DNA from: an uncultured Alphaproteobacteria bacterium
Lineage (GTDB): Bacteria > Pseudomonadota > Alphaproteobacteria > Rs-D84
NCBI GenBank assembly: GCA_937888635.1
Contig: CALARG010000004.1
Span: 7,193 to 71,192 of the forward strand
Reading direction: 5' to 3'
Length of the DNA: 64,000 nt
Below the pieces are notes generated by a model that saw only the letters and a program-made list of their open reading frames with translations, did no database searches and was not told the origin of the DNA. Each line of letters opens with the position of its first letter. Positions within the stretch are counted from its first letter, which is position 1. This document shows positions 11,701 through 53,444 of this stretch, in pieces. Position numbers and translations under genes: made by a program.

Positions 11701-12921
11701 GCGGGTAAGTATGTTGCGACCGCAGGTCAAGGCGAAGTTGACTGTCTGGCGGGTGGATATTGCGCCGGTGGAGCCAAGATAATGCGTGTCGGTAAAGGTG
11801 GACGCGAGGTATGTCCAAACGGCTATGCGTTATCTGATTCAGGGGCAGCAAGTGCACAGCAGTGCTATACAAGTTGCGCAATGGCAACCAATGCCCAAGA
11901 AATGTTCGGTCGCGACTATTATGCAAATGGTGTGGATACATGTGAAATAACACTGTGTCGCCCGGGGTATACTTTGAACGCTGGTGTGTGCGCAGTATGT
12001 CCGGCAAATAATATCTGTACACCAGATATTGAACGCGGTAAACCACAACTGTGTTCAGATCTGACAAAGGGAACACACCAGTTCGCATCGGCAGGCTCTG
12101 AAAAGATTTCTGATTGCTATCTGAAATGTGAAGCCTATGATATTACCTATGGAACGGCGATTCCTGTGTCGGGTACTGAAAATTATCCGCTGCAGTGCAG
12201 ATTTGACGGTTTGTCTGTCACCAAGAATCCGTGCGACATAGTTAACGGAACATGTGTAGAAAGATCATGTAACTATAACTATGAAATGATTGGTGGTAAA
12301 TGTCAGGCATGTGCACGCGAAAATGCATTGTCATACAAGAAAGATGGTGGCAACTGTGTTGTAGAGTCGTGTGTCAGCGGATTCCATCCAAATGGCCAGG
12401 CCTGCGAAGTTGATACCGTAGAATGTTCTGTTCCAAATGCGGTTGCGGCGACACGCGTTTGGGATGCATCAAAGCAAGCGTTTGGTGAATGTGTAATCAC
12501 AGAATGCGAGGAAGGATATCATCTGGGGGCAAATACATGTCAGGCAGATGAACAGGTCTGTGAATTAGAACATGGTATTGGTATACGCGAATGGAATCAC
12601 AAGAAAAATACATGGGGCGATTGTATCGCAACCAAGTGTGATCCAGGCTATACAAATGACCGCAGCCAGACCAATGAACTGTGGAAACAGTGCGGACGAT
12701 GCAACAATATGTACAGTGCGGGTGGCGAGTTGGCGGCCAGCAGCTATGTTGATGGTTGTGAGATTGCGACTTGTATGTACGAAGGTGAGTTGTACACACT
12801 GGAAAACAATGAATGTGTTCTGATATGCGATACCTATTCAGATGAGACGGGATCGCGCAGATGGAATGCATCACGCAAGAAGTGTGAACGCACATGTGAA
12901 CCAGGATATATGTCTTGGTAA
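5794..12921 (+). CDS. Giant secreted Cys-rich repeat protein (2375 aa) with mixed repeat modules: ephrin-receptor-like CxxCPxGxYC Cys repeats, Gly/Tyr/Trp-rich (AGYW/GYYSTGG) repeats, at least six Listeria-Bacteroides (Flg_new) repeats, four tandem ~150-aa Cys-rich modules and EGF-like Cys-rich C-terminal modules
   Basis: RBS GAGAGGG is followed by a signal peptide MNLKCLMSRISAFFASLLFMVVFATESFAA. CVACPAGYYCLGG repeats are present. Flg_new-type repeats include VSFETNGGTDVADMTCTVESADITLPTPTKTGYTFGGWYQNSALTG...YKLYAKWT, found twice almost identically at nt 7237-7690. Repeated CYLTTTAGKYVATAGQGEVECLAGGYCAGG modules lie at roughly nt 10320-12000. A rho-independent terminator follows the gene. Confidence 0.8.
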   Translation: MNLKCLMSRISAFFASLLFMVVFATESFAAMYLPGQVIEKFNYISNVTFTAQYTAVVCDAGTYLPEGGEECVACPAGYYCLGGGAPVVCPAGRYCLSGTQSANGSGLVAAGYYSTGGAKVQNPQFAEDCVGDGNACGLIDAGYWGAAGATTSTGSGKVAAGYYNLGGGTSATPEVRGKGCVNVSTTQCGTVAPGYWGEAGATRYGGSGAVAPGYYSTGGATSRTPSASGCAGKVAIIENGKLMGASDVDNTCGQVQAGYWNNACGINATGGVCSAEYQGGVIAAGHWGTVGATDSAGSGLLTPGYYSTGGATIEFPDPNQCVGNNTCGAVAAGYWNNGGGTSANGTCVSGKSCGQVNAGYYSTGGGTSATPTAAGNGCLANKSCGTCANWTYSGAGAASCTACPAVESGYAKLDSTGTGWTTYQKCVEIATESPENCASGKLQKIPTASGATTWATATVNANNPLVAKPGYIVSGTACLSEGYVVSFETNGGTDVADMTCTVESADITLPTPTKTGYTFGGWYQNSALTGNAVSVIAKGTCTSAYKLYAKWTVIERKITLNANGGTIVGGSSATPSACTVETADITLPKPTKTGYTFGGWYQNSALTGTAVTKIAKGACLSDYTLYAKWTVNTYTVTLDANGGTGGDTSVTATYGELLPAISALPSQDGYDFNGYWSAKTGGVQYYNMSGAAIEKWSTDAAGTLYAQWAAKGTCAAGTYYNEETGAVETCPAGSYCAGGTWGNDGNNCAIAKCPSDYPNSVAGASEEGQCYKASPKCWCSHDEAECASKGANSCMYNDVRFQGVTYKSNPDMCVAAPGSSDNTYCEIIKVSCKAGTYYTPTGDIEDGSCVSCATLGDGSFKTSYPSLVKYVADSDTGSTACFKSVDLPCTAPVCPLSGTGVCAYDASHSILGGGYLFYGTDEPLPGSAAAYVCPNASFTCNTGYDKNENADIDPTDGSASVPEELCTPHVYTFTLDPNGGETAVGKIYEKYSVGWYSNEAATAKITKVAVPVRPGYTFAGYYTKMTALEGAVPVIGVAGNILDEPDVAADAVLYAWWQVNTYTVKYNAAGASGTMDSVVHTCDEPLNLTPNAFTSATNDQQFMGWATEPNAATPEYTDGQKVVNLTLVNNAVVTLYPVWKACTACAAGKGATCSLTAPVGVCTYTTACAANYENLQNAGKYNPTCSAVKYAVNMETNGGEISSDYTMVSQCTVESGVIVLPTAAQISREDYRFEGWYDNVATTGSAISSIPAGGCTTNKTLYAKWVINVEMCQPGMYYNGTSFVACPKGYYCPGEGKVTMGVAGCRTVCPSGYDDGGTGYSDESQCQISVPQGSYLATAKGTNTTVCPAGKYTSGAVLVSYGDTSSCASCEAGNYCSNGTKRSCATETDGVFASSVANSDNINDCYTVTVAGKYIADNAVKTCVVPYYCPGDIKVSYGNSGGNLSCADLSDDVTWQSGVTASGASTPDKCYVVVADGKYWNGDAFATCKAGTYKTEHNVYYGQKSSCATCPAGYTSEAGASECYLTTTAGKYVATAGKGEVECKAGDFCPGGVKVMVSGVGGNTACKTLAGGKYSMSAAGTKSADMCYTESCALATNATTMSGKDYYGASVADTCVATLCKAGFTVVGGACSVCPANNVCNPAKDAGKPYTCSELTGGVYTKSAAQTGTVDNCYLTTTAGKYVATAGQGEVECLAGGYCAGGVDVKRTGTGGREACPAGYAMSGTGASEINQCYANCAMYSHATQMAGKDFYGTGVDTCEAVECETGFVLANGTCGSCPANSVCDPNYDGGKPHTCSELTNGKYTLSLENSSSIDACYTITTPGKYVAVAGQGEVACKVGDYCLGGVKVMYTATGGNSACSAFGAGYSSDVGASVETQCYQRCALAANATQMSGRDYYGTDATDTCAVASCVSGYTVAGGVCSVCPADHVCDPAKDNGAPHTCSELTDGVYTKSAMQNGSVDNCYLITTAGKYVATAGQGEVDCLAGGYCAGGAKIMRVGKGGREVCPNGYALSDSGAASAQQCYTSCAMATNAQEMFGRDYYANGVDTCEITLCRPGYTLNAGVCAVCPANNICTPDIERGKPQLCSDLTKGTHQFASAGSEKISDCYLKCEAYDITYGTAIPVSGTENYPLQCRFDGLSVTKNPCDIVNGTCVERSCNYNYEMIGGKCQACARENALSYKKDGGNCVVESCVSGFHPNGQACEVDTVECSVPNAVAATRVWDASKQAFGECVITECEEGYHLGANTCQADEQVCELEHGIGIREWNHKKNTWGDCIATKCDPGYTNDRSQTNELWKQCGRCNNMYSAGGELAASSYVDGCEIATCMYEGELYTLENNECVLICDTYSDETGSRRWNASRKKCERTCEPGYMSW

Positions 12922-24942: not shown

Positions 24943-24950
24943 TTAAAATT

Positions 24951-24977
24951 CCGCCCATGTGGCGGTTTTTTTTTTTA
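24951..24977 (+). terminator. Rho-independent terminator
   Basis: ccgcccatgtggcgg hairpin plus an 11-T run. Confidence 0.75.
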
Positions 24978-24980
24978 GTG

Positions 24981-25330
24981 ATAAGTTGCTAGTGTAAGTG
25001 GTTAGTGGTGGTCCCTGCGGGGCAATGGATACCGGCCTGCGCCGGTATGACGAAGAGGAAAAATGACCTGGGGCCTGCGGCCCGACCGCGGGATGACAGA
25101 AATGTTTAATTTTTTGCGGATACTAACAACTATTAACAACTAATATAAACTTTTATTTATCACAGTAAAAATAAGTCCGTCATACCGGCGCAGGCCGGTA
25201 TCCATTGTAATCATAAAACACAGTGGACCCCGACCTTCGCACGCGTGACGATTTTTTCCCGACACTAATCACTTACAACTTACACTAACAACTAACATAA
25301 ACTTTTATTTATCTGTAAAAATTGAAATAA
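24981..25330. repeat. Composite intergenic palindromic repeat locus (modules A/B/C/D), including an inverted duplication of module B
   Basis: Module A is a GT-rich tagtgtaagtggttagtggtgg run. Module B is gtccctgcggggcaatggataccggcctgcgccggtatgacg at 25018-25062 (the 8-bp-stem hairpin ataccggc-ctgc-gccggtat is at 25039-25058), and its reverse complement appears at 25186-25216. A reverse-orientation module A/D lies at 25260-25320. The same modules recur at 27410-27545 and 36716-37060. Confidence 0.8.
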
Positions 25331-25372
25331 AAAAAACCGCCGGGGCGGTTTGTCAGAATGTGGAAATGTGCC

Positions 25373-27380: not shown

Positions 27381-27387
27381 AAAAAAA

Positions 27388-27411
27388 GTCCCCGTAAAGG
27401 GGATTTTTTAG
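27388..27411 (+). terminator. Rho-independent terminator after gpmI
   Basis: tccccgtaaaggggat hairpin plus a T-run. Confidence 0.7.
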
Positions 27412-27545
27412 TTGTAAGTTGTTAGTGTAAGTGATTAGTGTCGGTTTTTATTTTCTTAGCCCCTGTTCCCGCGATGGCCGGAATGACAAATATGATGAAT
27501 CGTTTACTGCGATAAACTTTTATTTGTTTAAGAAAACGGAAATTT
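27410..27545. repeat. Intergenic palindromic repeat locus (modules A, C, D)
   Basis: tagttgtaagttgttagtgtaagtgattagtgtcgg (module A), ccctgttcccgcgatggccggaatgacaaa (module C) and gataaacttttatttg (module D), matching the copies at 24981-25330 and 36716-37060. Confidence 0.75.
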
Positions 27546-27660
27546 ATCGGCGAAAAAATACTGTCAAAAAAATTATTGCTGTGTTGGGGGAATTTTTTAC
27601 TTGTGCAAAATTGCTGGTTTTTCTATGATAAAGACAAAAGAGAAAAAGAAAGTGGGAAGA

Positions 27661-30600
27661 ATGTCTAGATTTCTGCGGTTTTACGCATTTTTATCTGTTT
27701 TGTTTTTTACCGGTAATTTGATGGCGGCGGGGTATACCTGCAGCACAACGGCGAGATATACTTCGTGTAAAGAAGGCTATTATATGTCCGATTGTGGCAG
27801 TACAGCCGCGAATTGGACTGGGCAGACAGTGGACGCAACCAATGGTAACACTTGTATTGCGTGCCCTGACGGATATGCGTGTGAAGGTGACAATGTGTGT
27901 CCTGTGCGGAATGGTATTAACTGTGCCGCGGGGACATATATCAAGGCGAATACAACAACATGTACCGCATGTCCGGCTGGGAATTATTGCCCAGGCATAA
28001 CCACAGATTCTGTGACCAGTACTTCATCAGATCGTGGTATAACACAATGTCCGGCGGGTTCCTATTGTCCCGCGGGCAGTAGCAATCCAAAGTCATGTCC
28101 AACAAATTATGGAAACAGTGCAGCCGGTTCAGATGCGGCATCAGATTGCTATGCCACTTGTGGGGTTGGTGCAGTGGTGACTGCGCCAATGACACCGTGC
28201 GTTACACCAGCGGGGGCATGGTATTCCCCATCGGCACATAATGTTTACTATGGCAAAATTTCACCAATTGGGTATTGTCAGTATGGGTCAGATTCCCGCA
28301 ATGGGGTAACCAGTTTGCATGATCAGGGGGCCGACTGTTTGGTGACAGTGCCGGCGGGGTACAGTTCCGCGGTCACAACCAGCACTGCACGTTATATCCG
28401 AATCAGTTCTGAAACAGGCGTATTCCCGTTGGCAGAGGTTCAGGCATATAATAATTCTTTGGGCCAGCTGAGTTTGGCATTGGGCAGCAGTGTGACAAAT
28501 GGTGTGAATGCATTGGATGGTTCTTTGGCGACACAGGCGGGCGTAACCACAGAATCGGCTGTTGGGGCGTATGCGATATTTGATTTGGGCAGTGCCAAGA
28601 CGATTACGAATATTAAGTTTGCATTGGGTAATGTGACCAGTGGATATAATATTGTAATTGCAATATCGTCTGATAAATCAAACTGGACAACTGTATTTAA
28701 TCAGACCGTTTTTGGTGTTTCGGTATTGCCGGGCGTGTTGCAAAATGTACCGCTTAACACCCGGACAAATACCAAGTGTACAGCCGGCACATATCATGGT
28801 TCAACGACGGTTGCTGCAACAAATGGTGTGACCTGTTCGGAGTGTCCGGCAGCGGTATGTAATGGAGAAACAAATTGTGCCAGTGGTTTTTCAACCCACA
28901 GAAATACATATCCTGCTAATTACCATTCTGATGATAATTTGAAATTGGTTAAGGCATGGTTCGCAACATCGTCAAATACAGGAAATACATCCATAGAGGA
29001 ATGTAAGCTGTCTTATACGTATACCAACAATCGTGGTACATTTAATCAGGATTCAGTTCGGTATCAATCCAGTACGGGACGCTATGATGGTGTGGGTGGT
29101 TCTGTTTACTATACTGTTTTGAATCCTGGTTATTATGGTTCTGGCAAAATGCCAGATGGGTACTGTGATACTGATACAAATACTCGTCGGCATTATTATC
29201 AGGATGCAGTATTATGTCCTGCGGGGAAATACTGTTCAGGATATACACAGATGCCATTGTGTTCTTCTGGAACTTATAATGATACAATGGGAATTGATGG
29301 TTTGTTATCTGGGGGATACTTTTCAACTGGTGGTGCGACAAAAGCTGCACCGACATCGGCAGATTGCGTTGGGGTTGTTGGAGCCGATATCTGGAGTTCA
29401 TCTGTTTCCCCGGTAAAAAATGTCTGTGGTCAACTCTTGCCTGGATATTATTCCATAGAGGGTGCTATCTTGCCTGCGCCGGGTGAATTGGGTGCAAAAA
29501 ATACCGCGGCATTGGGCTTTAGTATTGATTATTTGAATCAGGGGCTGGATTCTGTTCGGGCGGGATGCCTTGGAAGTGACAAATGCGGTATGGTTGCTGC
29601 GGGGTATTTTTCATCGGGCGCTGCAACTTATCCAAGGCCATCGTCTACAGGTTGTGTGAGTGGGACATGTGGCATTTGTCCGGCAGGTGCATATTCTGCC
29701 GCAGGCGCGACCAGTTGTACAGCATGCCCTGCCCTGGGTGGATCAAATTGGACCTGGAATATGTCACAGGGTGCCGGATCATTGTCTGCCTGTAAGCGTA
29801 AGGGTGTGCCCGATGGGTGCAGCGCCGGTACGGTGACGGATACTGCAACATCGGCAACAACATGGGGAAATCGTGTGCTGAACGAATGGGCGGCGCCTGG
29901 GAATACGCAAATCTTTGCACAACGGGGATATCAGATAGATGTGACCAATCTAAAATGTACAATATGCCCAAATGGACATTATAGTGGGGGATATACGAGC
30001 AGTTGCGCCCCAGTTAATGCTGGATATTATGCAACAGGCGCTGCAACTTCACCAGCCCCTTCGTCATCAGAAGATTGTGTGACTGGAACATGTGGCAAAG
30101 TTCAAAAGAATTGTTATGGCGCATCAGGGGCGACATCAGCATGCCCAAACAAATGTTCTGATTTGGCATATGGTACATACCCACAGTCGGATGAGGGCGC
30201 GGATTCACCGAATAAATGTTTCACATCGGGCAGCGCGATGGGCGGTGGATATATTGCAACAGCCGGTGGCCCACGCCGTGATTGTCCGTTGGGAACATAT
30301 AAGGAATATCATACTGTGTATTATGGTCAAACATCTCGGTGTACAGTCTGTCCAAGTGGGACCACCACAGCGACACAAGGCGCTCATAATACATCCAGCG
30401 CGTCATGCAGTGCTGAATGTACAAATGCTGATGGTGTGTATGAATGGCAAATGCCAGAATTGTCTTCGGATGGAGGAACAGTGTTAAAATTGTGTCAGGC
30501 GGCCAGTTGCAAGGCAGGAAACGCTTTGGGAACAACAAGCCAATGTAACGAATGTCCGGCGGGACATTATCAACCCGTTGATGGTTATTCCGACAGCATA

Positions 30601-33600
30601 TGTAGCATAACACCCGATGGATATTACAACAACGAGCCCGGCGCAACAGAGCCACTGCCGTGTCCCGCAGGGCAATGGTCGGTGGCGCAATCTAAATCAT
30701 GTACGACCTTGCCTGCTGGATACTGGAATAATGGTTGTGGTACTGATAACAAGGGTTCTGTACGTGAAGGTTATCTGGGTGGCGAGATTGCTGCGGGTTA
30801 TTGGGGCGAAGCTGGTGCGACAACTGCAACGGGTTCTGGTATGGTTAATGCAGGTTACTGGAACGATGGTTGTGGTATAAATGCAACAGGTGGCGTTTGC
30901 GACACAACCCATAAGGGTGGCCAGGTAAATGCCGGATACTATAACCTGGGTGGTGGTACATCGCCAACACCAGAGGTTCGCGGAAAAGGTTGCGCAAATG
31001 TCAGCACCACGCAATGTGGTACGGTTGCACCAGGCTATTGGGGGGCTGCGGGTGCAACACAATATGGGGGCTCTGGGGCCGTTGCGCCGGGATATTTTTC
31101 AACAGGTGGTGCAACATCCAGAACACCAAGTGCAAGTGATTGCGCCGGCAAGGTTGCGATTATAGAAAATGGCAAGCTGATGGGTGCATCTGATGTTAAT
31201 AACACATGTGGACAGGTTCAGGCCGGATACTGGAACAATGCATGTGGTATTAATGCAACTGGTGGTGTGTGCAGCACTAGTTACCAAGGTGGTATAATCG
31301 CAGCTGGATATTGGGGAACGGTGGGCGCAACGGACAGTGTTGGCTCAGGGCGCATTGCCCCAGGATATTATTCAACCGGTGGTGCAACAATTGAGTATCC
31401 AGATCCAAATCAGTGCGTTGGTAATAATACATGTGGTGCAATTGCGGCAGGATATTGGAATAATGGTGGTGGTACACTGGCCGCGCCAACGGCCCCAGGC
31501 AATGGGTGCCACAGTGATAAATCGTGTGGCACGGTTAACGGCGGATACTATTCAACTGGTGGTGGTACATCCGCAACGCCAACAGCCGCAAGTAATGGAT
31601 GTTTGGCTAATAAGTCTTGTGGTAAATTAAGTGCGATATACTATTCAAATGGTGGCAGCACATCTGATGGTGCGACATGTGTTAGTGGTAAAACATGCGG
31701 TACATGTAATGCAAATTATCGTGCAAATACCACAACAGGTAAGACATCCGCAAGCCAGTGTCAGGCATCTTGTGCGGCAGGCACGCGTGTTGCAACAGTG
31801 AATGCAGCATGTACATCGCCGGCGGGCGGATGGTTTAGTGCGGCCCATCTGGTAAATTATGGTCAGATATCACCGGTAAATTACTGTATGTCTGGTTATA
31901 CATCAGCCAGCACATCGGCCAGTGGTCACGATGCAAAATCTGATTGTGTCCAGACGGTTGCAGGTGGTAAATATGTGCCGTCGTCAAAGATTAATGCACG
32001 GTATATTAAGATTACATCTGATGGCAGTGTTAGTGTAAGCGGTTCTACAAATCCAAGTACACACTTGCTAGAAATGCAGGCGTTTGCATCCAGTGATGGT
32101 ACAGGCACAAATCTGCTGTCAGGTAAAGGAGCGGTTGCAGGTGATAAGATGTCTGCGGTGACAAATGGCAACTGGACACGTGGCGATGGGTATTCCTATG
32201 GCGAAGGGTCACCAATGATATTGGATTTAGGTTCTGTTCAGGCGTTGGGCAGTTTGAAGTTTGCGATGTATACTGATGGTCGTGAATATCAGAATGTTGC
32301 AATTGCGGTGTCTGAAGATAACACGACATATACAACAGTGTTTACAGCGAATAAACTGTTAACCCAGAATACAACCACCCCAACAGGCGAACTGGTTGTA
32401 TTAAGTGCAGCACCAAAATCATGTGCGGCCGGTACATCTAAGGCATCAGGTACGGTTGCGTTGGGCAACACAACGACATGCGGTACATGTGCAAACTGGA
32501 CATATTCTGGTGCGGGTGCGGCATCATGTACCGCCTGTCCAGCGGTAGAGTCTGGTTATGCAAAACTGGACAGCACAGGTACAGGATGGACGACATATCA
32601 GAAGTGTGTTGAAATTGCGACTGCATCGCCAGCAAACTGTAAGTCTGGTAAATTGCAGAAGATTCCAACTGCATCTGGTGCAACGACATGGGCAACAGCA
32701 ACAGTTAATGCGAATAATCCGTTGAATGCAAATCCGGGATATATCGTAAGTGGCACAATGTGCTCACAATGTACTGGTGCGACCTACTCTGCTGGTGGCA
32801 GTGCAACATCGTGTTCGGCCTGTGATCCAAATTATCAGGCGGATACCACTGCAGGTAAATCGGCTGCAACTCAGTGCCAGATTTCATGTGCGCCTGGTAC
32901 AGCAGTTGTAGAAAAGAACAAGGCATGTGCAGTGCTGTCAGGTGGTAAGTATAAGACGGGCACGGCATTGGTAAAATATGGTTCGTTATCGCCAACCGCA
33001 ACTGATAAAACATCAGGATGGGCGGTGGATACAGTGTATAGTTGCCCAAGCAGCTATGGCATTAGTGGCACAGCGGCGGCCAATCATGATGCACGCACGG
33101 ATTGCACTATTAGCTGTCCGGCGGGAACCCAGGTTGCAAGTACGAACGCAACATGCACAACACCAAGTGGCACAACATGGTACACATCTGGACACAGTGT
33201 TGCGGCGGGCTCAACATCTGGAACAAATGTAAAAAGCTGTAATTCTGGTTATACGACGCCGAATACAACAACACAATCTGATCACGACGCGGCAGCGGAT
33301 TGTAAGATTAGTTGTGATGCTGGATACTATGTTCCAAATGCAGGTCAAGGATGTAAGATTTGTGCGCCGGGTAAGTATTGTGAGGCTGTGTCAGATATTG
33401 ATCAGACAAAGATATCGGCTGTGACCGGCGATGTGACGGCGGGATACTATTCCAGTGCGGGCGGTACATCGGCAACGGGTACATGTTTGTCTGGCAATTC
33501 TTGTGGCAGTTGTTCAACCGGAACAGGTTCTAATGGGCGTCTGTTGTATTCAAATGCTGGGGCGGCATCATGTTCGGAATGTCCAGCGGCAACAGGCACA

Positions 33601-36600
33601 TTGGCCAGCCGTGTGACGGGGTATAGTGGATGGTGGTCAAATAATATCCATAACAAAATTGGTGGGTGCTATGCGAATTTCTCTGACAGTGATGATACTG
33701 CAACATACCGAACAATGTGTTATTACAACGCAACAGATGGCACATATGGTGGCGAAAACAGCAGTTGTCAGTTCTATGCCCCAACGGCATGCAGTGGCGG
33801 ATACTATTCAGTTATTGATAAAACATCTGAATGGAGCACGTATGGATATGCGTACTGTAAGGGTGTGGATTGCATGAAGGGTAAGGTTTGTGGTCTGACC
33901 GATGCTGGTTCATACAGTCCAGATGGCGCAACAACACAGACCAAGTGTGTAATGGGTTCGTATACCGACACAACAGGTCAAAGCGCATGTAAGGCATGTG
34001 CAGGTGGCAAGACAAACAGCGCAGATGGTGCAACATCGTGTACAGCAACCTGCTCTAATGCGACGGGTGTGACAGGTTGGGAAACACCGGTTTGGGACAA
34101 CACAACCAACAAGATGACCAATTTGTGCACGGTTAAGGCAACAGCGGGCTGTTCGGCAAATTATTACAAGAACAGCAATGCGTGCACTGCATGCCCAAGT
34201 GCGACCTATCCATATAGTGTGGCAGGCGCAACAGCACAAACACAGTGCTATGCAAATGTGACATTGAACAAGAATGGATTTAGTGGTTCTATTGCGGCTG
34301 GTTTGGGCACAGGGTGCAAGGTTGTATCTGCTGCGACAGGTACAAATAATGCGACACTGCAGGTGTATTACAATACAGAATGTACATTGCCAACAATCAG
34401 CGGATTTACCCAGACGGGTTATACTGCGGCCAGCGGTTGGGCATCTGTGAATACGATTGGTGCAAGTGCAGTGACCAAGTTGCCGGCATCAACATCAAAA
34501 CCTGCGGCGACATATTATGCGCGCAAGACAACATGTGGTGCAGATTACTATAAGAAAGATGCAACGACATGCAGCACATGTGCAAGTGGTACGGATGGCA
34601 ACTATACCAAGTCTGCAGCAGGCACGGCCAGTGATGTGAATGTATGTTATCTGAATACAACGGCCAAGAACTTTGTTAAGACACCGGGCGCAGGTCAAAC
34701 AACATGTGAGAAAGGCAACTATTGCCCAGGTTCGGTCAAGGTGTATTATGGCGGAACAGCATCTGATACACACCCAACAACCGGTGGCAGTACACAATGT
34801 CCGGCAAACAGCTATTGCGTGGCGGGTGTAAGCGAACCAGTTGCGTGTTCAACACTGGGTGGTGGTTTGTATAAGAACAGTACAGCAGGTGCAAGCGCGG
34901 CAGAAGATTGCAACTTTACAACAACGGCGGGTAAGTACATGGTTGCGAATACCGATACTGCACAGACAACATGCCCAGCCAAACAGTACTGCACAGCAGA
35001 AACGCTGAACTGGCCAAATGTCAGTGTGCTGAACGACGGCGGTTGGAATGACTGTCCAGATGCAGCAACGCATAAACGTACATCGTTCCCTGCGGATTAC
35101 TATAGCCCGACGTTTGCAAGCACCAGTGTGACAAGTTCTACAGGTAAAGGATCTATAAGTGGGTGCCAGGTATTAAACTGGTTGGATTCAGCAACGCATG
35201 GTGGATTATACGAATATGTGAACTATAATCCAAACTCTGGCAAGTATGATACAACATACACATACAGATGGCATAGTGCAAAGCCTGGTTATTATCTGAC
35301 TGATAAAAATGGTTGTGGAGGATATGCATATTATCAGACCATCAAAGAATGCGAGCCAGGTTCGTACTGTCCGGGTAAAAACAAGGTTTCATGTAATAAA
35401 GATAACCAGGCAACGGTTCATACGGATACATTTGGTATATATTCGTGTTCGGCGGATACAGATGGCAACTATGAACTGTCATCTGGTGGGGTGGCGGCGA
35501 ACAGCATTAACAAATGCTATCTTGTGACCGATGTTGGTGATTGGGTGGCCACAGCGAACGCAGCCCAGACAGATTGTCAGGCAGATGGTTGGTGTCCTGG
35601 TAATGCGACCGTGTACTATGGCAGTACCGGTGGACGCACAGCATGTGTGGCACCATATGGATTGGCCGCAGCGGGGTCAGATGATGCGAATGATTGCTAT
35701 CTGAAGACCACGGCGGGACAGTATGTTGAGACCGCGGGCGCAGGTCAGACAGTATGCCCGGCAGGATACTGGTGCGTTGGTAAAGTCACCATATATAAGG
35801 GCGGTTCGGTCACCGGTCGCAGCACAAAGGGTGGCAGTGAACAATGCCCCGCCGGTTATCGTGATGGCACAACAGGATACAGTTTACAGTCACAGTGCAC
35901 AATGAATGTTCTGGGCGGTAAGTATGTTAAAGTTGTCAACGAAAGCAGTGCCAGTGGTACATGCGATTTAGGAACATATAAACCTGCACACCCGGTCACA
36001 TATGGCAAGACATCCAGCTGTATTCCTTGTCCGAATGCAACATATGCAGCACAGGAAGGCATGAGCGCATGTGAAGCATGTCCGACGGCAACAAAGTATG
36101 CGGATAAGGTTGTGTCGTATGGATCAAACAAAAAAGCGCGTTCAGGGTGTTATGCCAGATTTGAAGATACAGTAAAAAACGGCGAAACAACGTATTTTAG
36201 TTGTTATCTGCGGTCTGGTGATGATTATGGAACACTGACCAGTGGTAATAATTGTTGGACGCATGGGGCGCGCACAAAGTGTGACGCAGGGTATTATTCA
36301 CCGGTTGTACCAAACGCCCAATATGATGAAATGTGGTACATGAATTATTCAACAGTTGTTAATAATTTGTGTATGCCAGTAGAATCTGGATACTGGTCGG
36401 GGGCGGACAGCCTGACCCGTACGGCGTGCGAAACAGGCCTGGTGACATGTGGTGCGGGGTTGTGCGCGAACGAGGCCGGCGACTGTGGACGCAAGTTGCA
36501 TGCAGGTGATAATGTAATCTATCTGCGCAGCCAAAAGCGTACGACACCATCGCTGAATGTGAAAATTGGTGATAAGATGTTCTATGGAAACCTGGGGGAT

Positions 36601-36669
36601 GTTATTGCGAACAGTCTGCGGGTTAAGAATGGAACAAAGAATTACTCGGTTGTTAATGATAACCAATAG
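27661..36669 (+). CDS. Giant secreted Cys-rich repeat protein, paralog of 5794..12921 (about 3000 aa): ephrin-receptor-like Cys repeats, two discoidin-like (F5/8 type C) domains, Gly/Tyr/Trp-rich repeats, Cys-rich modules
   Basis: The likely start is ATG 27661 (AAGTGGGAAGA ATG; signal peptide MSRFLRFYAFLSVLFFTGNLMAAG); the ORF track starts at 27601. There are CxxCPAGxYCPG repeats. Discoidin-like segments are ARYIRISSETGVFPLAEVQAYNN... (about nt 28380-28740) and ARYIKITSDG...LLEMQAFAS... (about nt 31985-32350). A block of about 230 aa is near-identical to gene 1. The same 3' flank and terminator motif as gene 1 are present. Confidence 0.8.
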   Translation: MSRFLRFYAFLSVLFFTGNLMAAGYTCSTTARYTSCKEGYYMSDCGSTAANWTGQTVDATNGNTCIACPDGYACEGDNVCPVRNGINCAAGTYIKANTTTCTACPAGNYCPGITTDSVTSTSSDRGITQCPAGSYCPAGSSNPKSCPTNYGNSAAGSDAASDCYATCGVGAVVTAPMTPCVTPAGAWYSPSAHNVYYGKISPIGYCQYGSDSRNGVTSLHDQGADCLVTVPAGYSSAVTTSTARYIRISSETGVFPLAEVQAYNNSLGQLSLALGSSVTNGVNALDGSLATQAGVTTESAVGAYAIFDLGSAKTITNIKFALGNVTSGYNIVIAISSDKSNWTTVFNQTVFGVSVLPGVLQNVPLNTRTNTKCTAGTYHGSTTVAATNGVTCSECPAAVCNGETNCASGFSTHRNTYPANYHSDDNLKLVKAWFATSSNTGNTSIEECKLSYTYTNNRGTFNQDSVRYQSSTGRYDGVGGSVYYTVLNPGYYGSGKMPDGYCDTDTNTRRHYYQDAVLCPAGKYCSGYTQMPLCSSGTYNDTMGIDGLLSGGYFSTGGATKAAPTSADCVGVVGADIWSSSVSPVKNVCGQLLPGYYSIEGAILPAPGELGAKNTAALGFSIDYLNQGLDSVRAGCLGSDKCGMVAAGYFSSGAATYPRPSSTGCVSGTCGICPAGAYSAAGATSCTACPALGGSNWTWNMSQGAGSLSACKRKGVPDGCSAGTVTDTATSATTWGNRVLNEWAAPGNTQIFAQRGYQIDVTNLKCTICPNGHYSGGYTSSCAPVNAGYYATGAATSPAPSSSEDCVTGTCGKVQKNCYGASGATSACPNKCSDLAYGTYPQSDEGADSPNKCFTSGSAMGGGYIATAGGPRRDCPLGTYKEYHTVYYGQTSRCTVCPSGTTTATQGAHNTSSASCSAECTNADGVYEWQMPELSSDGGTVLKLCQAASCKAGNALGTTSQCNECPAGHYQPVDGYSDSICSITPDGYYNNEPGATEPLPCPAGQWSVAQSKSCTTLPAGYWNNGCGTDNKGSVREGYLGGEIAAGYWGEAGATTATGSGMVNAGYWNDGCGINATGGVCDTTHKGGQVNAGYYNLGGGTSPTPEVRGKGCANVSTTQCGTVAPGYWGAAGATQYGGSGAVAPGYFSTGGATSRTPSASDCAGKVAIIENGKLMGASDVNNTCGQVQAGYWNNACGINATGGVCSTSYQGGIIAAGYWGTVGATDSVGSGRIAPGYYSTGGATIEYPDPNQCVGNNTCGAIAAGYWNNGGGTLAAPTAPGNGCHSDKSCGTVNGGYYSTGGGTSATPTAASNGCLANKSCGKLSAIYYSNGGSTSDGATCVSGKTCGTCNANYRANTTTGKTSASQCQASCAAGTRVATVNAACTSPAGGWFSAAHLVNYGQISPVNYCMSGYTSASTSASGHDAKSDCVQTVAGGKYVPSSKINARYIKITSDGSVSVSGSTNPSTHLLEMQAFASSDGTGTNLLSGKGAVAGDKMSAVTNGNWTRGDGYSYGEGSPMILDLGSVQALGSLKFAMYTDGREYQNVAIAVSEDNTTYTTVFTANKLLTQNTTTPTGELVVLSAAPKSCAAGTSKASGTVALGNTTTCGTCANWTYSGAGAASCTACPAVESGYAKLDSTGTGWTTYQKCVEIATASPANCKSGKLQKIPTASGATTWATATVNANNPLNANPGYIVSGTMCSQCTGATYSAGGSATSCSACDPNYQADTTAGKSAATQCQISCAPGTAVVEKNKACAVLSGGKYKTGTALVKYGSLSPTATDKTSGWAVDTVYSCPSSYGISGTAAANHDARTDCTISCPAGTQVASTNATCTTPSGTTWYTSGHSVAAGSTSGTNVKSCNSGYTTPNTTTQSDHDAAADCKISCDAGYYVPNAGQGCKICAPGKYCEAVSDIDQTKISAVTGDVTAGYYSSAGGTSATGTCLSGNSCGSCSTGTGSNGRLLYSNAGAASCSECPAATGTLASRVTGYSGWWSNNIHNKIGGCYANFSDSDDTATYRTMCYYNATDGTYGGENSSCQFYAPTACSGGYYSVIDKTSEWSTYGYAYCKGVDCMKGKVCGLTDAGSYSPDGATTQTKCVMGSYTDTTGQSACKACAGGKTNSADGATSCTATCSNATGVTGWETPVWDNTTNKMTNLCTVKATAGCSANYYKNSNACTACPSATYPYSVAGATAQTQCYANVTLNKNGFSGSIAAGLGTGCKVVSAATGTNNATLQVYYNTECTLPTISGFTQTGYTAASGWASVNTIGASAVTKLPASTSKPAATYYARKTTCGADYYKKDATTCSTCASGTDGNYTKSAAGTASDVNVCYLNTTAKNFVKTPGAGQTTCEKGNYCPGSVKVYYGGTASDTHPTTGGSTQCPANSYCVAGVSEPVACSTLGGGLYKNSTAGASAAEDCNFTTTAGKYMVANTDTAQTTCPAKQYCTAETLNWPNVSVLNDGGWNDCPDAATHKRTSFPADYYSPTFASTSVTSSTGKGSISGCQVLNWLDSATHGGLYEYVNYNPNSGKYDTTYTYRWHSAKPGYYLTDKNGCGGYAYYQTIKECEPGSYCPGKNKVSCNKDNQATVHTDTFGIYSCSADTDGNYELSSGGVAANSINKCYLVTDVGDWVATANAAQTDCQADGWCPGNATVYYGSTGGRTACVAPYGLAAAGSDDANDCYLKTTAGQYVETAGAGQTVCPAGYWCVGKVTIYKGGSVTGRSTKGGSEQCPAGYRDGTTGYSLQSQCTMNVLGGKYVKVVNESSASGTCDLGTYKPAHPVTYGKTSSCIPCPNATYAAQEGMSACEACPTATKYADKVVSYGSNKKARSGCYARFEDTVKNGETTYFSCYLRSGDDYGTLTSGNNCWTHGARTKCDAGYYSPVVPNAQYDEMWYMNYSTVVNNLCMPVESGYWSGADSLTRTACETGLVTCGAGLCANEAGDCGRKLHAGDNVIYLRSQKRTTPSLNVKIGDKMFYGNLGDVIANSLRVKNGTKNYSVVNDNQ

Positions 36670-36693
36670 TTCGGCAAATCAAGGAAGGAAAAA

Positions 36694-36718
36694 TCCCGCC
36701 CATGTGGCGGGGTTTTTA
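36694..36718 (+). terminator. Rho-independent terminator after giant gene 2
   Basis: cccgcccatgtggcggg hairpin plus a T-run, preceded by the aatcaaggaaggaaaaa motif shared with the gene 1 3' flank. Confidence 0.75.
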
Positions 36719-37060
36719 GTGGTTAGTGTTGGTCCCTGCGGGGCAATGGATACCCACCTGTGTGGGTATGACGGACTTATTTTTACTGTGATAAATAAAA
36801 GTTTATATTAGTGGTTAGTGTAAGTTGTAAGTGGTTAGTGGTGGAAATAAATTAAGAATCTTCGTCATTCCCGCGAATGCGGGAATCCACTGCGTCGCAG
36901 ACATTTTCTTACTTGTCCCTGCGGGGCAATGGATACCCACCTGCGTGGGTATGACGGAGGGTGCGCGTTGCGCACGGTTTGGGGACCCTGTTCCCGCCTT
37001 CGCGGGAATGACAAAGGGGGGGCGTGGTTTGTGCCCTGCCCGTGTTTAGGGATAAATTTA
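36716..37060. repeat. Intergenic palindromic repeat locus (modules A, B x2, C x2, D)
   Basis: Module B occurs twice: tccctgcggggcaatggatacccacctgtgtgggtatgacgga at 36729-36771 and tccctgcggggcaatggatacccacctgcgtgggtatgacgga at 36907-36949. Its stem is atacccac/gtgggtat, versus ataccggc/gccggtat at 25039-25058, which is a compensatory change. Module C hairpins are attcccgcgaatgcgggaat and ttcccgccttcgcgggaa. Module D is gataaataaaagtttat, and the GT-rich module A is also present. Confidence 0.8.
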
Positions 37061-37145
37061 TTTAAGAAAATGTGTCTATTGCCACTTGAAATCATTTTCT
37101 GGTTAACTATATGGTGGGTAAGCAAAAATTTAAGGAGTATGAAAA

Positions 37146-39599: not shown

Positions 39600-40535
39600 T
39601 CACCTTTGATATGCGATTTGCTTTAGGTCTTGGGATAATTGTTCCAGACGCTGAACAATTAAATTCCACGATGTTTTTGGGGCAGTAAATGTTTGTTGCG
39701 CCATATTGTCATAGTCTGATTCCAGGGCGTATAAAACCGGATCCGACGGAATCAAAATAGCATCGCGTGGTGTTATATCTGTTCCCAATCGCTTGGTTGT
39801 ATATTTTTCCTGGTACTGTGCAACATCTGACAGCATGTGCGCGGTTTTGTCTAAATCAACGTATCCTGCCAGTCTGGCAACATCAAAATAGTGGCGCGAA
39901 TAAAATGCGTCTGTGTGTGGGCGTGCCGATATAGCGTTTGAATGCAAGGCAAAAACCTTGTCCCAGAAGGTTTGTTCATAGGCAACGGTTGGGATATGCC
40001 CAAATCGGGTGCCCCGTAATGCATACGGCATTACAGAATGAAAAGACAGCGCAGACGATGAGTATTTGCGCGGAATTATTTCAATGTGAATTTCTTCGGG
40101 CCTGTCACAAAATGCAGAATTATAGAATATATGAATTGTTGGTGATGACAGCCATTGTTCTTTGTTGCTTCTTATACAGTGTTCACGGTCTGTTTGTATT
40201 TGGAAATTATTGTCTGTGGCAATCAGGGCCGATATTCGGGGGGCAACAGTTTCAAAAATAAATGTTTTAAACCGTTTGCGAAATTTTTTTAACTGATTTC
40301 GCGATGGGGTGTCGGGAATATCGCAAAATACAGTGCATGCCAAATCCAGGTCCTGGCTGACGCGTGGGCTGAACGCATATGATTTTGTAATAGAGCCACC
40401 ACCTGCAAACACAAAATTTTCCGCGAAGAATTTATCTTGGAATAATTTGACCAAGATTGCACATTCCAGGAAATCTTTTTCCGCCATGGCAGGGTTTTTG
40501 GCGCCTGCAAAAATATCGTACCGTTTTTCTATCAT
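39600..40535 (-). CDS. Pol-beta-superfamily nucleotidyltransferase, AbiEii/DUF1814 (MenT-like) toxin family
   Basis: The N-terminal motif AEKDFLECAILVKLFQDK...FVFAGGGSITKSYAFSPRVSQDLDLA matches the AbiEii/DUF1814 signature (KD..ILk.l...FvFKGGTaL.k.y...RfSeDiDf; hG[GS]x9-13DhD). 311 aa. No AbiEi-type antitoxin ORF is adjacent. Confidence 0.65.
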   Translation of the reverse strand: MIEKRYDIFAGAKNPAMAEKDFLECAILVKLFQDKFFAENFVFAGGGSITKSYAFSPRVSQDLDLACTVFCDIPDTPSRNQLKKFRKRFKTFIFETVAPRISALIATDNNFQIQTDREHCIRSNKEQWLSSPTIHIFYNSAFCDRPEEIHIEIIPRKYSSSALSFHSVMPYALRGTRFGHIPTVAYEQTFWDKVFALHSNAISARPHTDAFYSRHYFDVARLAGYVDLDKTAHMLSDVAQYQEKYTTKRLGTDITPRDAILIPSDPVLYALESDYDNMAQQTFTAPKTSWNLIVQRLEQLSQDLKQIAYQR

Positions 40536-52129: not shown

Positions 52130-52459
52130 ATAATCATGTCGCGATGTGTTGTCGTGATGGGGTGTAGTGACCTCTGCCATAGCGTCGGAATACATACTTG
52201 TGGCGCATATTATGCGCTGTTTTTATTATAAGACCGACGAAAAACTCCTGATCCCGGGTCAGGAGGGTTGCGAATATAATGAATAAGCACACAATTCTAT
52301 GGATTGTCACTAACCTCCTGACCACTTTGAATTTAATTCTGGTGGTTTTTTTTGTTGTGGTGATGCGACCCATTTTAATGACCCGTTGTGGTTATTAAAA
52401 TACACTCTATTCACAATCCGCATCACCACCAAGATTTGAACAGAAAGGGAGAGATTCGT

Positions 52460-53392
52460 ATGCCATACGATTTTAAGAAATTTATATTTTCCGTATCATT
52501 GTGCGCCATGTTGGCGGTCAACCCGGTATTGGCAACCGCACCAACAAACGATGAAGACCTGGGCACAACGCATGATGTATATGTTGAATCAACATTAAAC
52601 CAGGCAACAAATGGTATTGCGGGTGTCAGTTATGTAAATCGTATGGTAAATGCGGCGGGCAACGCCGCCGATGCGGCCGAAGCACATGCAGCCGCCGCAG
52701 GCGCACATGCCTTAAGTGCCGCCCAATCCGCAGACGAGGCGCACAAGGTTTTGGCAGATAAAGTTAATATTGACCAGGGTGAAAACAAGAAAAATCTGGC
52801 CATGGTGACGGATGATAAAGGGACGGTCTATGCGGGGTATGTTGCGCCAGGTATGATTGCCGACGGTGGCAAGATAGACGATGTTAAAACCAGTCCATAT
52901 TCAGGTTTTGTTTTATGGAGTGATCGTGACGGTAATGTGTCATGGAAAACTGTGGATAATGAAGTTCTTGCCAGTGGCGCGGTAACGGCAAGTAGAATTG
53001 CCGATGGTGCGGTGGGTGCTGATAAATTATCTGCTGGTATTCCTGATGATTTTTCTAGTACGGGTTTTTTGGCATATTCTGGCATTGATGGTGATGATAA
53101 AGGAGGAATGATATGGCGCCAGGTTTGGGCCGATGATATTGCCGATAGTGCGGTGACATTAGATAAAATTGCCGCAGAAAAATATGAACAACCCCAAAGC
53201 ACCGCAGGCACTGATGGTGTATTATTAACATGGTCAATGTCCGGCGACACCAATCAGCTTCAATGGCGCAAAATTCGCGCAGGCGATATAGGTGATGGTG
53301 CGGTGACGATTGAAAAAACCGAAGGTGTTGTTGGTATGGTGCCGGTGGGCTCAGCAGACGCCACCACATATGGGCAATTTTGGATTGAATAG
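52460..53392 (+). CDS. Secreted repeat protein (about 310 aa) with reiterated ADGAVT/DKI motifs (tail-fibre/adhesin-like repeats)
   Basis: Start ATG 52460 (RBS AAGGGAGAG; signal peptide MPYDFKKFIFSVSLCAMLAVNPVLATA). Repeats include RIADGAVGADKLSAG, IADSAVTLDKIAAE and IGDGAVTIEKTEG. Confidence 0.5.
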   Translation: MPYDFKKFIFSVSLCAMLAVNPVLATAPTNDEDLGTTHDVYVESTLNQATNGIAGVSYVNRMVNAAGNAADAAEAHAAAAGAHALSAAQSADEAHKVLADKVNIDQGENKKNLAMVTDDKGTVYAGYVAPGMIADGGKIDDVKTSPYSGFVLWSDRDGNVSWKTVDNEVLASGAVTASRIADGAVGADKLSAGIPDDFSSTGFLAYSGIDGDDKGGMIWRQVWADDIADSAVTLDKIAAEKYEQPQSTAGTDGVLLTWSMSGDTNQLQWRKIRAGDIGDGAVTIEKTEGVVGMVPVGSADATTYGQFWIE

Positions 53393-53444
53393 GTTATGGC
53401 AGTGGTTAGTGGTTGAAAAATTATATATAACAACAATACAAAAA

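Follow-up and report, generated by a model that had tools for sequence, protein, structure and literature searches.

Mosaic intergenic arrays of Ssn-related motif hairpins with lineage-specific spacers in an uncultured gut alphaproteobacterium

We analyzed a 64-kb stretch of DNA (the window) from an uncultured gut alphaproteobacterium of the Candidatus Enterousia group, in which a first-pass annotation had described modular palindromic repeats at three intergenic loci. Judged by its sequence, structure and context, the hairpin at the core of these loci is a member of the family known as Ssn-related motif (SRM) or Neisseria Transformation Sequence (NTS). It is likely that the loci are mosaic intergenic arrays of SRM hairpins with lineage-specific spacers, which would serve at the DNA level as recognition sites of the small nuclease Ssn and as recombination joints. 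The nearest genomes to the window were those of Candidatus Enterousia and metagenome-assembled genomes (MAGs) of gut Alphaproteobacteria.

The published system was described by Chenal et al. (2025, Nat Commun, PMC11893778), in which the 28-nt NTS, CGTCATTCCCGCGMAVGCGGGAATCYRG, contains the classical dRS3 element (ATTCCC-N8-GGGAAT). The same work defined the degenerate SRM, given as HGTCWYN(0-2)YYVSBRHN(0-5)WNVSBRGN(0-2)RNCYNB. SsnA is a small single-domain GIY-YIG protein that binds and cuts the hairpin as single-stranded DNA (ssDNA) only, on one strand and just 5' of it, without action on RNA, and ssnA genes across bacteria commonly carry the motif on their flanks (PMC11893778). SRMs are defined as inverted repeats of 20-50 nt with many, nearly always intergenic, copies per genome; their orientation is set by three nucleotides on the 5' side of the palindrome, important for cleavage, and by a C directly behind it, important for binding. 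Its transformation phenotype was published for Neisseria, and its role elsewhere was left by the authors for elucidation (PMC11893778).

Hairpin copies and family identity

Module searches in the window were run with mismatches allowed, and the chance level was taken from expectation or from shuffled sequences. All four modules of the first-pass annotation were recovered far above chance, as common components of three intergenic arrays (~24943-25372, 27381-27600 and 36670-37145; Table 1). Module 2, CAATGGATACC-N10-GGTATGAC, lies at 25023 (+), 25179 (-), 36744 (+) and 36927 (+), with an expectation of 0, and module 3, TCATTCCCGC-N4-GCGGGAA, at 36865 (+) and 36991 (-), plus a degenerate copy at 27466 (-). 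The AT-rich module GATAAATAAAAGTTTAT is present in three exact copies and one with two mismatches, and the GT-rich module in five copies; the run previously noticed at 53396-53415 is a short copy of it. Inverted repeats of 74 nt (92% identical) and 63 nt link the 25.1-kb and 36.8-kb loci in the output of a repeat finder, which also returned a perfect 30-nt inverted pair inside the first locus. When the 64 kb were scanned for generic hairpins, nine copies were obtained (five intact, one partial and three decayed), and 9/9 fell within the three intergenic regions. The SRMs are spaced by 28-91 bp of modules that recur at other loci, and the spacers specific to this lineage are the GT-rich and AT-rich modules.

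Several details of the earlier description had to be corrected. Its stem coordinates were off by 1 to 10 nt: the stem ATACCGGC/GCCGGTAT lies at 25029-25048 and again at 25182-25201, and the stem ATACCCAC/GTGGGTAT at 36750-36769 and 36933-36952. The loop CTGC given for every copy is CTGT in one of them, and the list of module-2 copies lacked the inverted copy at 25179-25207. Modules 2 and 3, which had been treated as separate, are A.T and T.A variants of one SRM hairpin, distinguished by a compensatory change from A.T to T.A beside the CC/GG core; on sequence grounds both belong to one family, the SRM, alias NTS or dRS3. The oriented hairpin consensus reads (C)GTCAT[A/T/C]CC-NNN-loop4-NNN-GG[T/A/G]ATCC, and the flanks are fixed in all intact copies (CGTC-AT...AT-C, with GTC before the palindrome and C after it). 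The base preceding GTC, which the search left free, is mostly C and otherwise mainly T, fitting the H of the SRM consensus. The published SRM expression matched 25025-25052 (-), 25178-25205 (+) and 36863-36890 (+) exactly, with 0 matches in 30 shuffles, and the two intact CAC-stem copies failed it at one S position only. The copy at 36863-36890 differs from the NTS at 2 positions and holds an exact dRS3 at 36868-36887. The pair adjoining the fixed CC/GG can be A.T, T.A or C.G; the C.G form flanks ssn-like genes in related species and occurs also in one strain at the dnaK array.

Species-representative genomes were then scanned with a pattern that fixed both arms and left the 10 nt between them free. 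More than 115 genome stretches from many phyla contained the hairpin, which occurs in its bare form in Chloroflexota, Nitrospirota, Desulfobacterota, Beta- and Gammaproteobacteria, Endomicrobia and others, so the repeat is by no means single-copy outside the window. The extended module GTCCCTGCGGGGCAATGGATACC is common to many gut Alphaproteobacteria MAGs, with Candidatus Enterousia among the matches listed. Tail-to-tail doublets were seen in other phyla (L029, L060, L069, L079 and others), where GTCATTCC...GGAATCCA is followed within ~10 nt by CAATGGATACC...GGTATGAC; their layout recalls that of REPIN doublets, in which repetitive extragenic palindromic (REP) sequences are paired. Spurious open reading frames (ORFs) run across some hairpin arrays (L008 2645-2857; L075 2146-2406) and yield peptides such as IPAYAGIH and WIPACAGMT. 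A literature text search for peptides mistranslated from the hairpins (IPAFAGMT and similar) returned nothing relevant.

Stem covariation and position relative to transcription

Five copies of the window fold as ssDNA hairpins with an 8-bp stem and a 4-nt loop (-7.7 to -9.5 kcal/mol, z -2.6 to -4.2). Covariation was assessed in 129 distinct copies, drawn from the window and 115 genome loci, at the three stem pairs that the search pattern did not constrain. Overall 98.7% of the cells are paired, with counts of GC 79, CG 30, UA 7 and AU 4 at pair 15-24, GC 108 and AU 16 at pair 16-23, and CG 119 and UA 5 at pair 17-22. Double-change cells numbered 64 against 13.9 in shuffles (0/500 shuffles reached 64), pairing dropped to 20-33% in partner-sliding controls, and a separate count among distinct variants gave 91% paired versus 68% after shuffling. 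Family-wide stem covariation across phyla is real, and the compensatory changes proposed from a few copies of the window hold up in this larger sample.

The stem difference within the window itself has another origin. The window was compared with a set of strains represented by contigs from many gut metagenomes, which encode identical SmpB, helix-turn-helix (HTH) and DUF2155 proteins and whose aligned parts are 91-98% identical to it. In array C, which separates the giant gene from dnaK, L134 and L136 bear a GGC/GCC stem on the orthologous hairpin; on the same hairpin the window, L132 and L135 bear CAC/GTG. In-situ compensatory evolution of the GGC and CAC stems was rejected, as strains that are 95-97% identical bear either type at the same site. 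Because near-conspecific strains carry either type at the same orthologous position, the two stems of the window are explained as whole hairpin variants swapped by recombination.

The covariation by itself would be expected of RNA structure, and the arrays lie just 3' of genes, where read-through transcripts could carry them. REP elements in E. coli can stabilize upstream mRNA. The hairpins could therefore be imagined to act as RNA, in the form of stabilizers or terminators in 3' untranslated regions, small RNAs or riboswitch-like elements. However, every array is directly preceded by a canonical intrinsic terminator and stops ahead of the following promoter (array C stops short of the conserved promoter-like site of dnaK). 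The hairpins carry no T-runs, and a single array can hold them in both orientations; all of this favors a DNA-level role. The departures from pairing are strand-symmetric (6 G.T versus 7 C.A), which argues against a strand-specific RNA, no Rfam family reached its gathering threshold anywhere in the window, and SsnA is not active on RNA (PMC11893778). We thus consider an RNA function highly improbable; of the earlier proposal of selection for an RNA or DNA hairpin, the hairpin kept by compensatory changes stands and the RNA option finds no support. That the stem covaries while the GTC and C flanks are invariant may be explained by a requirement for an extruded or ssDNA hairpin.

Some observations on the surroundings of the hairpins concern transcription and strand. 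The terminator stem CCGCCCATGTGGCGG (24951-24965 and 36696-36710) ends two different variable genes, and so this terminator appears to travel within the repeated package. The AT module bears a sigma-70-like TTTACT-N16-TATATT (9/12 matches) at 36782-36809 (+) and 25142-25169 (-), and from its sequence the AT spacer could supply an outward-facing promoter. The promoter-like site before dnaK reads as possibly sigma-32-like. GC skew is unusually strong (+0.2 to +0.3) over 1-44 kb and about 0 or lower past 45 kb, where the genes turn to the minus strand.

Table 1 Features of the three arrays and their neighborhood, in coordinates of the window
Feature	Position	Strand	Remarks
Intrinsic terminator of 464-aa gene	24949..24976	+	Stem CCGCCCATGTGGCGG + T-run; same stem at 36696
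GT-rich spacer module agtgataagttgctagtgtaagtggttagtggtgg	24977..25011	+	Begins right after T-run
Mini hairpin GTCCCTGCGGGGC	25011..25023	+	Lineage-specific extension 3' of SRM (SRM forward strand)
SRM, A-type, CGTCATACCGGCGCAGGCCGGTATCCATTG	25022..25052	-	GGC/GCC stem top; exact SRM consensus match
Degenerate SRM-like copy TGTCATCCCGCGGTCGGGCCGCAGGCCCCAG	25067..25097	-	
Inverted GT-rich + AT modules	25113..25177	-	AT at 25145-25161; 74-nt inverted repeat with 36744-36817
SRM, A-type	25178..25208	+	GGC/GCC; inverted partner of 25022-25052; exact SRM consensus match
Decayed NTS-like copy cgtcacgcgtgcgaaggtcggggtccactg	25221..25250	-	
GT-rich (25259-25295) + AT module (25297-25313)	25259..25313	-	Adjoins HTH-gene terminator 25334-25351
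Intrinsic terminator of iPGM gene	27389..27409	+	
GT-rich module	27410..27444	+	Holds left junction (~27426/27427) of giant-gene presence/absence
Degenerate T-type SRM TGTCATTCCGGCCATCGCGGGAACAGGGG	27459..27487	-	
AT-module variant AACAAATAAAAGTTTAT	27512..27528	-	
Giant Cys-rich repeat protein gene	27601..36669	+	3022 aa; between two arrays
Intrinsic terminator of giant gene	36695..36717	+	Stem as at 24951
Short GT-rich module	36718..36732	+	Right junction of giant-gene indel
Mini hairpin + A-type SRM, CGTCATACCCACACAGGTGGGTATCCATTG	36732..36773	-	CAC/GTG stem top
AT module (GATAAATAAAAGTTTAT, 36790-36806) then GT-rich module (36808-36845)	36775..36845	+	
T-type SRM CGTCATTCCCGCGAATGCGGGAATCCACTG	36863..36893	+	Exact SRM consensus match; counterpart of Neisseria NTS with 2 mismatches
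Mini hairpin + A-type SRM, CGTCATACCCACGCAGGTGGGTATCCATTG	36915..36956	-	CAC/GTG
Small GC hairpin GGTGCGCGTTGCGCAC	36960..36975	+	Kept in L019, L132, L134, L136
Partial T-type SRM TGTCATTCCCGCGAAGGCGGGAACAGGGTC	36983..37012	-	L019 synteny breaks in its loop
Promoter-like site CTTGAA-N16-CTATAT before dnaK	37085..37112	+	3' of array; kept in all strains; not a repeat
Short GT-rich module after accessory ORF 52388-53392	53396..53415	+	

Ssn-like genes and strain variation

By homology with the published system, the hairpin would be recognized by Ssn, a small GIY-YIG nuclease with a single domain, which is expected to bind it in ssDNA only, on one strand, and to cut a few nucleotides 5'. Putative genes of this kind were found beside the hairpins of other genomes. 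ORFs of ~100 aa with the pattern YVYIL...GTLYIG...LVYYE...REKQLKKW lie at most 400 bp from hairpins in L016, L020, L040, L046, L060, L061, L066, L072 and L073, and match Pfam PF01541 (GIY-YIG) with E values of 1e-12 to 1e-16. A strict GIY...YIG expression finds nothing anywhere, as the family begins YVYIL...LYIG; the relaxed expression finds the ORFs of the relatives. Clustering of the ORFs within 600 bp of the hairpins at the 115 loci listed placed the ~100-aa GIY-YIG family first (7 loci), and no transposase family was recurrent among these ORFs. Some ssn-like loci were retrieved by protein identity alone, independent of the hairpin: in four groups (L173, L177, L183, L184, L188) they carry inverted CGTCATCCCGGCGCAGGCCGGGATCCATTG copies on both sides, 52 nt ahead of the start and 13 nt past the stop, and in a fifth group (L142, L144, L152) one CGTCATCCCGGCGCAGGCCGGGATCCATTG-type copy 16 nt after the stop of the ssn-like gene. 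Ssn-like genes with the motif were recorded in the relatives L061, L066, L072, L073, L142-L161 and L173-L189. Among related gut alphaproteobacterial lineages, at least five (L142-L161 and L173-L189; pig, ruminant and other sources) have the gene at a fixed rpmJ-ychF site beside the type IV secretion genes virB3/virB4. A second hairpin class, TGTCATCCCGTGGCTTGACCACGGGACCCAGG, with a 5-nt loop flanks a second Ssn-like type (YYYVYILASS...) in L016, L020 and L040, which are sheep-rectum Alphaproteobacteria MAGs, and co-exists there with ATACC-type hairpins in the same loci; an Ssn-like type with a hairpin class of its own fits cognate enzyme-hairpin pairs.

These neighbors also bear on the idea that the hairpins are REP/REPIN elements in clusters like bacterial interspersed mosaic elements (BIMEs), spread by a REP-associated tyrosine transposase (RAYT) of the IS200/IS605-like Y1 type. 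Short GC-rich palindromes, inverted doublets (25022/25178; L060, L029), intergenic clusters and mosaic spacers are common to both, and the parallel was drawn in the Ssn paper too (PMC11893778). But the family that recurs within 600 bp of the hairpins is GIY-YIG rather than a Y1 transposase, and the window sequence is an exact match to the SRM consensus. RAYT-associated REPs have a GTAG-type head, whereas the fixed 5' flank of the window hairpins is (C)GTCAT. Since REP families are lineage-specific and the window hairpin is near-identical across phyla, we judge this explanation to be very unlikely.

As SRM sites, the arrays would be hot spots of unit duplication, deletion, inversion and exchange, together with gain and loss of accessory genes, and variation of this sort was seen among the strains. 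Array C is built of tandem units, each with a GT-rich module, mini hairpin, SRM and AT module; L132, L135 and L136 have one unit, the window has two and an inserted NTS-type hairpin, and L134 has at least four, with an assembly gap (a run of N) inside, so that the length ranges from 274 to 689 bp. The extra 183 bp of the window relative to L132 extend from an SRM to the next identical SRM and form a tandem unit without terminal inverted repeats (TIRs) or a target-site duplication (TSD). The array downstream of the HTH gene (array A) measures 179-431 bp and is a distinct mosaic in essentially every strain, and its neighbor gene (398-464 aa) has three 3'-end allele types. The giant gene encodes 2803-3041 aa in other strains and is absent from L128, L133 and L137, in which only 236 bp separate iPGM from dnaK. 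The junction of this indel, between agttgtaagttgttag and aggttagtgttgg, falls inside GT-rich modules that form direct repeats on both sides of the gene. The accessory ORF 52388-53392 (334 aa, no Pfam match) is present in L118, L119 and L123, absent from L116, L117, L120 and L121, and replaced by a 93-aa ORF in L122; strains without it have a half-SRM and an AT module in the gap, and L118 and L123 carry a two-SRM array at its end. The view that all arrays flank accessory genes was right in part: giant gene 2 varies in presence and the 464-aa neighbor is allelic, but dnaK and the XRE-type gene belong to the conserved core.

Two further observations concern the genes around the arrays. The giant Cys-rich proteins (5794-12921, 2375 aa; 27601-36669, 3022 aa) have segments of 280-300 nt in common at 90-95% identity, and their Pfam matches are faint only (Ephrin_rec_like, F5_F8_type_C). 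A gene of the AbiEii family (toxin/abortive-infection type; 39600-40535, -) lies just past dnaK and is kept in all strains examined.

Presence and absence of units between strains could also arise if the composite units were non-autonomous transposons, i.e. miniature inverted-repeat transposable elements (MITEs) such as Correia and Rickettsia palindromic elements (RPEs), inserting as discrete units. The long inverted repeats between copies (74 nt, 92%) would agree with this, and an ssn gene flanked by inverted SRMs resembles an insertion sequence (IS). However, the extra 183 bp form a tandem SRM-to-SRM unit with neither TIR nor TSD, TSDs sought at the extra units among strains yielded none, and the order of recombinant modules differs per strain instead of alternating between filled and empty sites. 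Every credible copy is intergenic, and none breaks a coding sequence. Unlike an IS, ssn is found at a single syntenic position (rpmJ-ssn-ychF) across at least five related lineages. Transposition of discrete units is accordingly an improbable account of the arrays, and the earlier likening to Correia elements and RPEs falls for want of TIR- or TSD-bounded ends, while that to REP/BIME elements holds as a broad class.

Synteny with the related species L019 (89% identity) stops inside a hairpin loop at ~37000, which would suit attachment or target sites for an IS110/Piv-family recombinase, the role that dRS3 has for neisserial filamentous phages and REPs have for IS110-family IS. In Neisseria, dRS3 is documented as the target of a phage recombinase. 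Neither a recombinase of this kind nor a prophage was found in the window or recurring beside the hairpins, and 2.9 million viral contigs gave 11 matches only. Such a role would add to the Ssn link, not replace it, and as an explanation of the arrays it is extremely unlikely.

In the favored reading, of SRM arrays recognized by Ssn, a putative Ssn of the source organism would bind and cut the window copies, and Ssn cutting, or plain homologous recombination between the repeats, presumably drives the rearrangements. The following points weigh against this reading. The 64-kb window contains no GIY-YIG ORF by either the strict or the relaxed expression, and look-ups of the Ssn candidates P0003, P0046, P0058, P0063, P0071 and P0068 matched only other species or samples, never the source species. 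The small GIY-YIG proteins of the relatives look like Ssn and are putative homologs of N. meningitidis SsnA (CDD cd10448), and searches of the Ssn-like protein against NCBIfam and PDB sequences gave no specific family or structure. Several window copies are decayed. The giant-gene indel has its junction within the GT-rich spacer rather than an SRM, so that RecA-type homologous recombination between repeats would suffice for this main indel without Ssn. An avoidance of the G-rich strand (the lagging-strand template) by the cleavable strand was rejected as unproven, with 47:28 per copy (p = 0.04) and 23:14 per locus (p = 0.19).

A bolder version, which we regard as doubtful, takes the package of terminator, GT-rich module, mini hairpin and SRM as a dedicated joint that swaps accessory cassettes, including the 9-kb giant genes, between strains, with a chromosomal Ssn processing incoming or replicating ssDNA at the SRMs. 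If true, Ssn and SRM would constitute a general NIME-like (neisserial intergenic mosaic element-like) cassette exchange outside Neisseria and not only a brake on transformation, a thought linked to the synteny of ssn beside virB3/virB4 in the relatives.

Significance and comparison with known systems

Ssn and NTS have been characterized functionally in Neisseria only, and the concept of the NIME, thought to be genus-specific, now reaches gut Alphaproteobacteria. The strain variants described here link arrays of Ssn hairpins with the appearance and disappearance of genes for giant secreted proteins and offer natural variants for testing whether such hairpins drive or delimit gene exchange. For annotation, the hairpins create false small ORFs and break metagenome assemblies, as at the array gap of L134.

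The closest counterpart is the SRM/NTS itself, with which the window hairpins have in common the CGTCAT head, 8-bp stem, 4-nt loop and C after the palindrome. The nine copies within the 64 kb are all intergenic and, as with the SRM/NTS, placed around surface or secreted-protein genes, and ssn-like genes with inverted copies on their flanks were seen in the relatives of the window. They differ in the host, which is an uncultured gut alphaproteobacterium and not Neisseria, in the dominant A.T variant (ATACC/GGTAT), where the NTS has T.A, and in the lineage-specific CCATTG and mini hairpin GCCCCGCAGGGAC.

NIMEs consist of dRS3 hairpins that flank RS elements in strain-variable syntenic arrays beside variable surface-protein genes (Parkhill 2000; Bentley 2007, PMC1797815). 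By sequence, the window arrays are NIME-like but are not NIMEs, as the genus and the spacer families differ. Both have conserved 20-30-nt hairpins split by reusable spacer families of ~30-90 bp, with GC-rich hairpins alternating with AT-rich spacers, and in both the array length and unit number vary among strains at syntenic positions next to variable surface-type proteins. The exact dRS3 of the window is accompanied by hairpins of the ATACC/GGTAT variants. NIMEs are, however, described as Neisseria-specific, and the window has spacers of other families than the RS elements of Neisseria, namely GT-rich (TAGTG/TAAGT)n and GATAAATAAAAGTTTAT, with no relation to them; the window arrays are also short (1 to at least 4 units) and start at an intrinsic terminator that is itself part of the repeated module.

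With the REP/BIME-RAYT system the arrays have in common extragenic palindrome clusters, mosaic spacers and inverted doublets, and in both a domesticated nuclease or transposase presumably recognizes the palindromes in the form of ssDNA hairpins. The enzyme is GIY-YIG here and HUH/Y1 there, the head sequences differ, and the window hairpin is conserved across phyla, where REPs are lineage-specific. Correia elements and RPEs are likewise short repeated palindromic DNA in host-associated bacteria with small genomes; the window units, in contrast, have no TIR-bounded ends, TSD or copies in coding sequences, and vary by recombination at shared hairpins, not by insertion.

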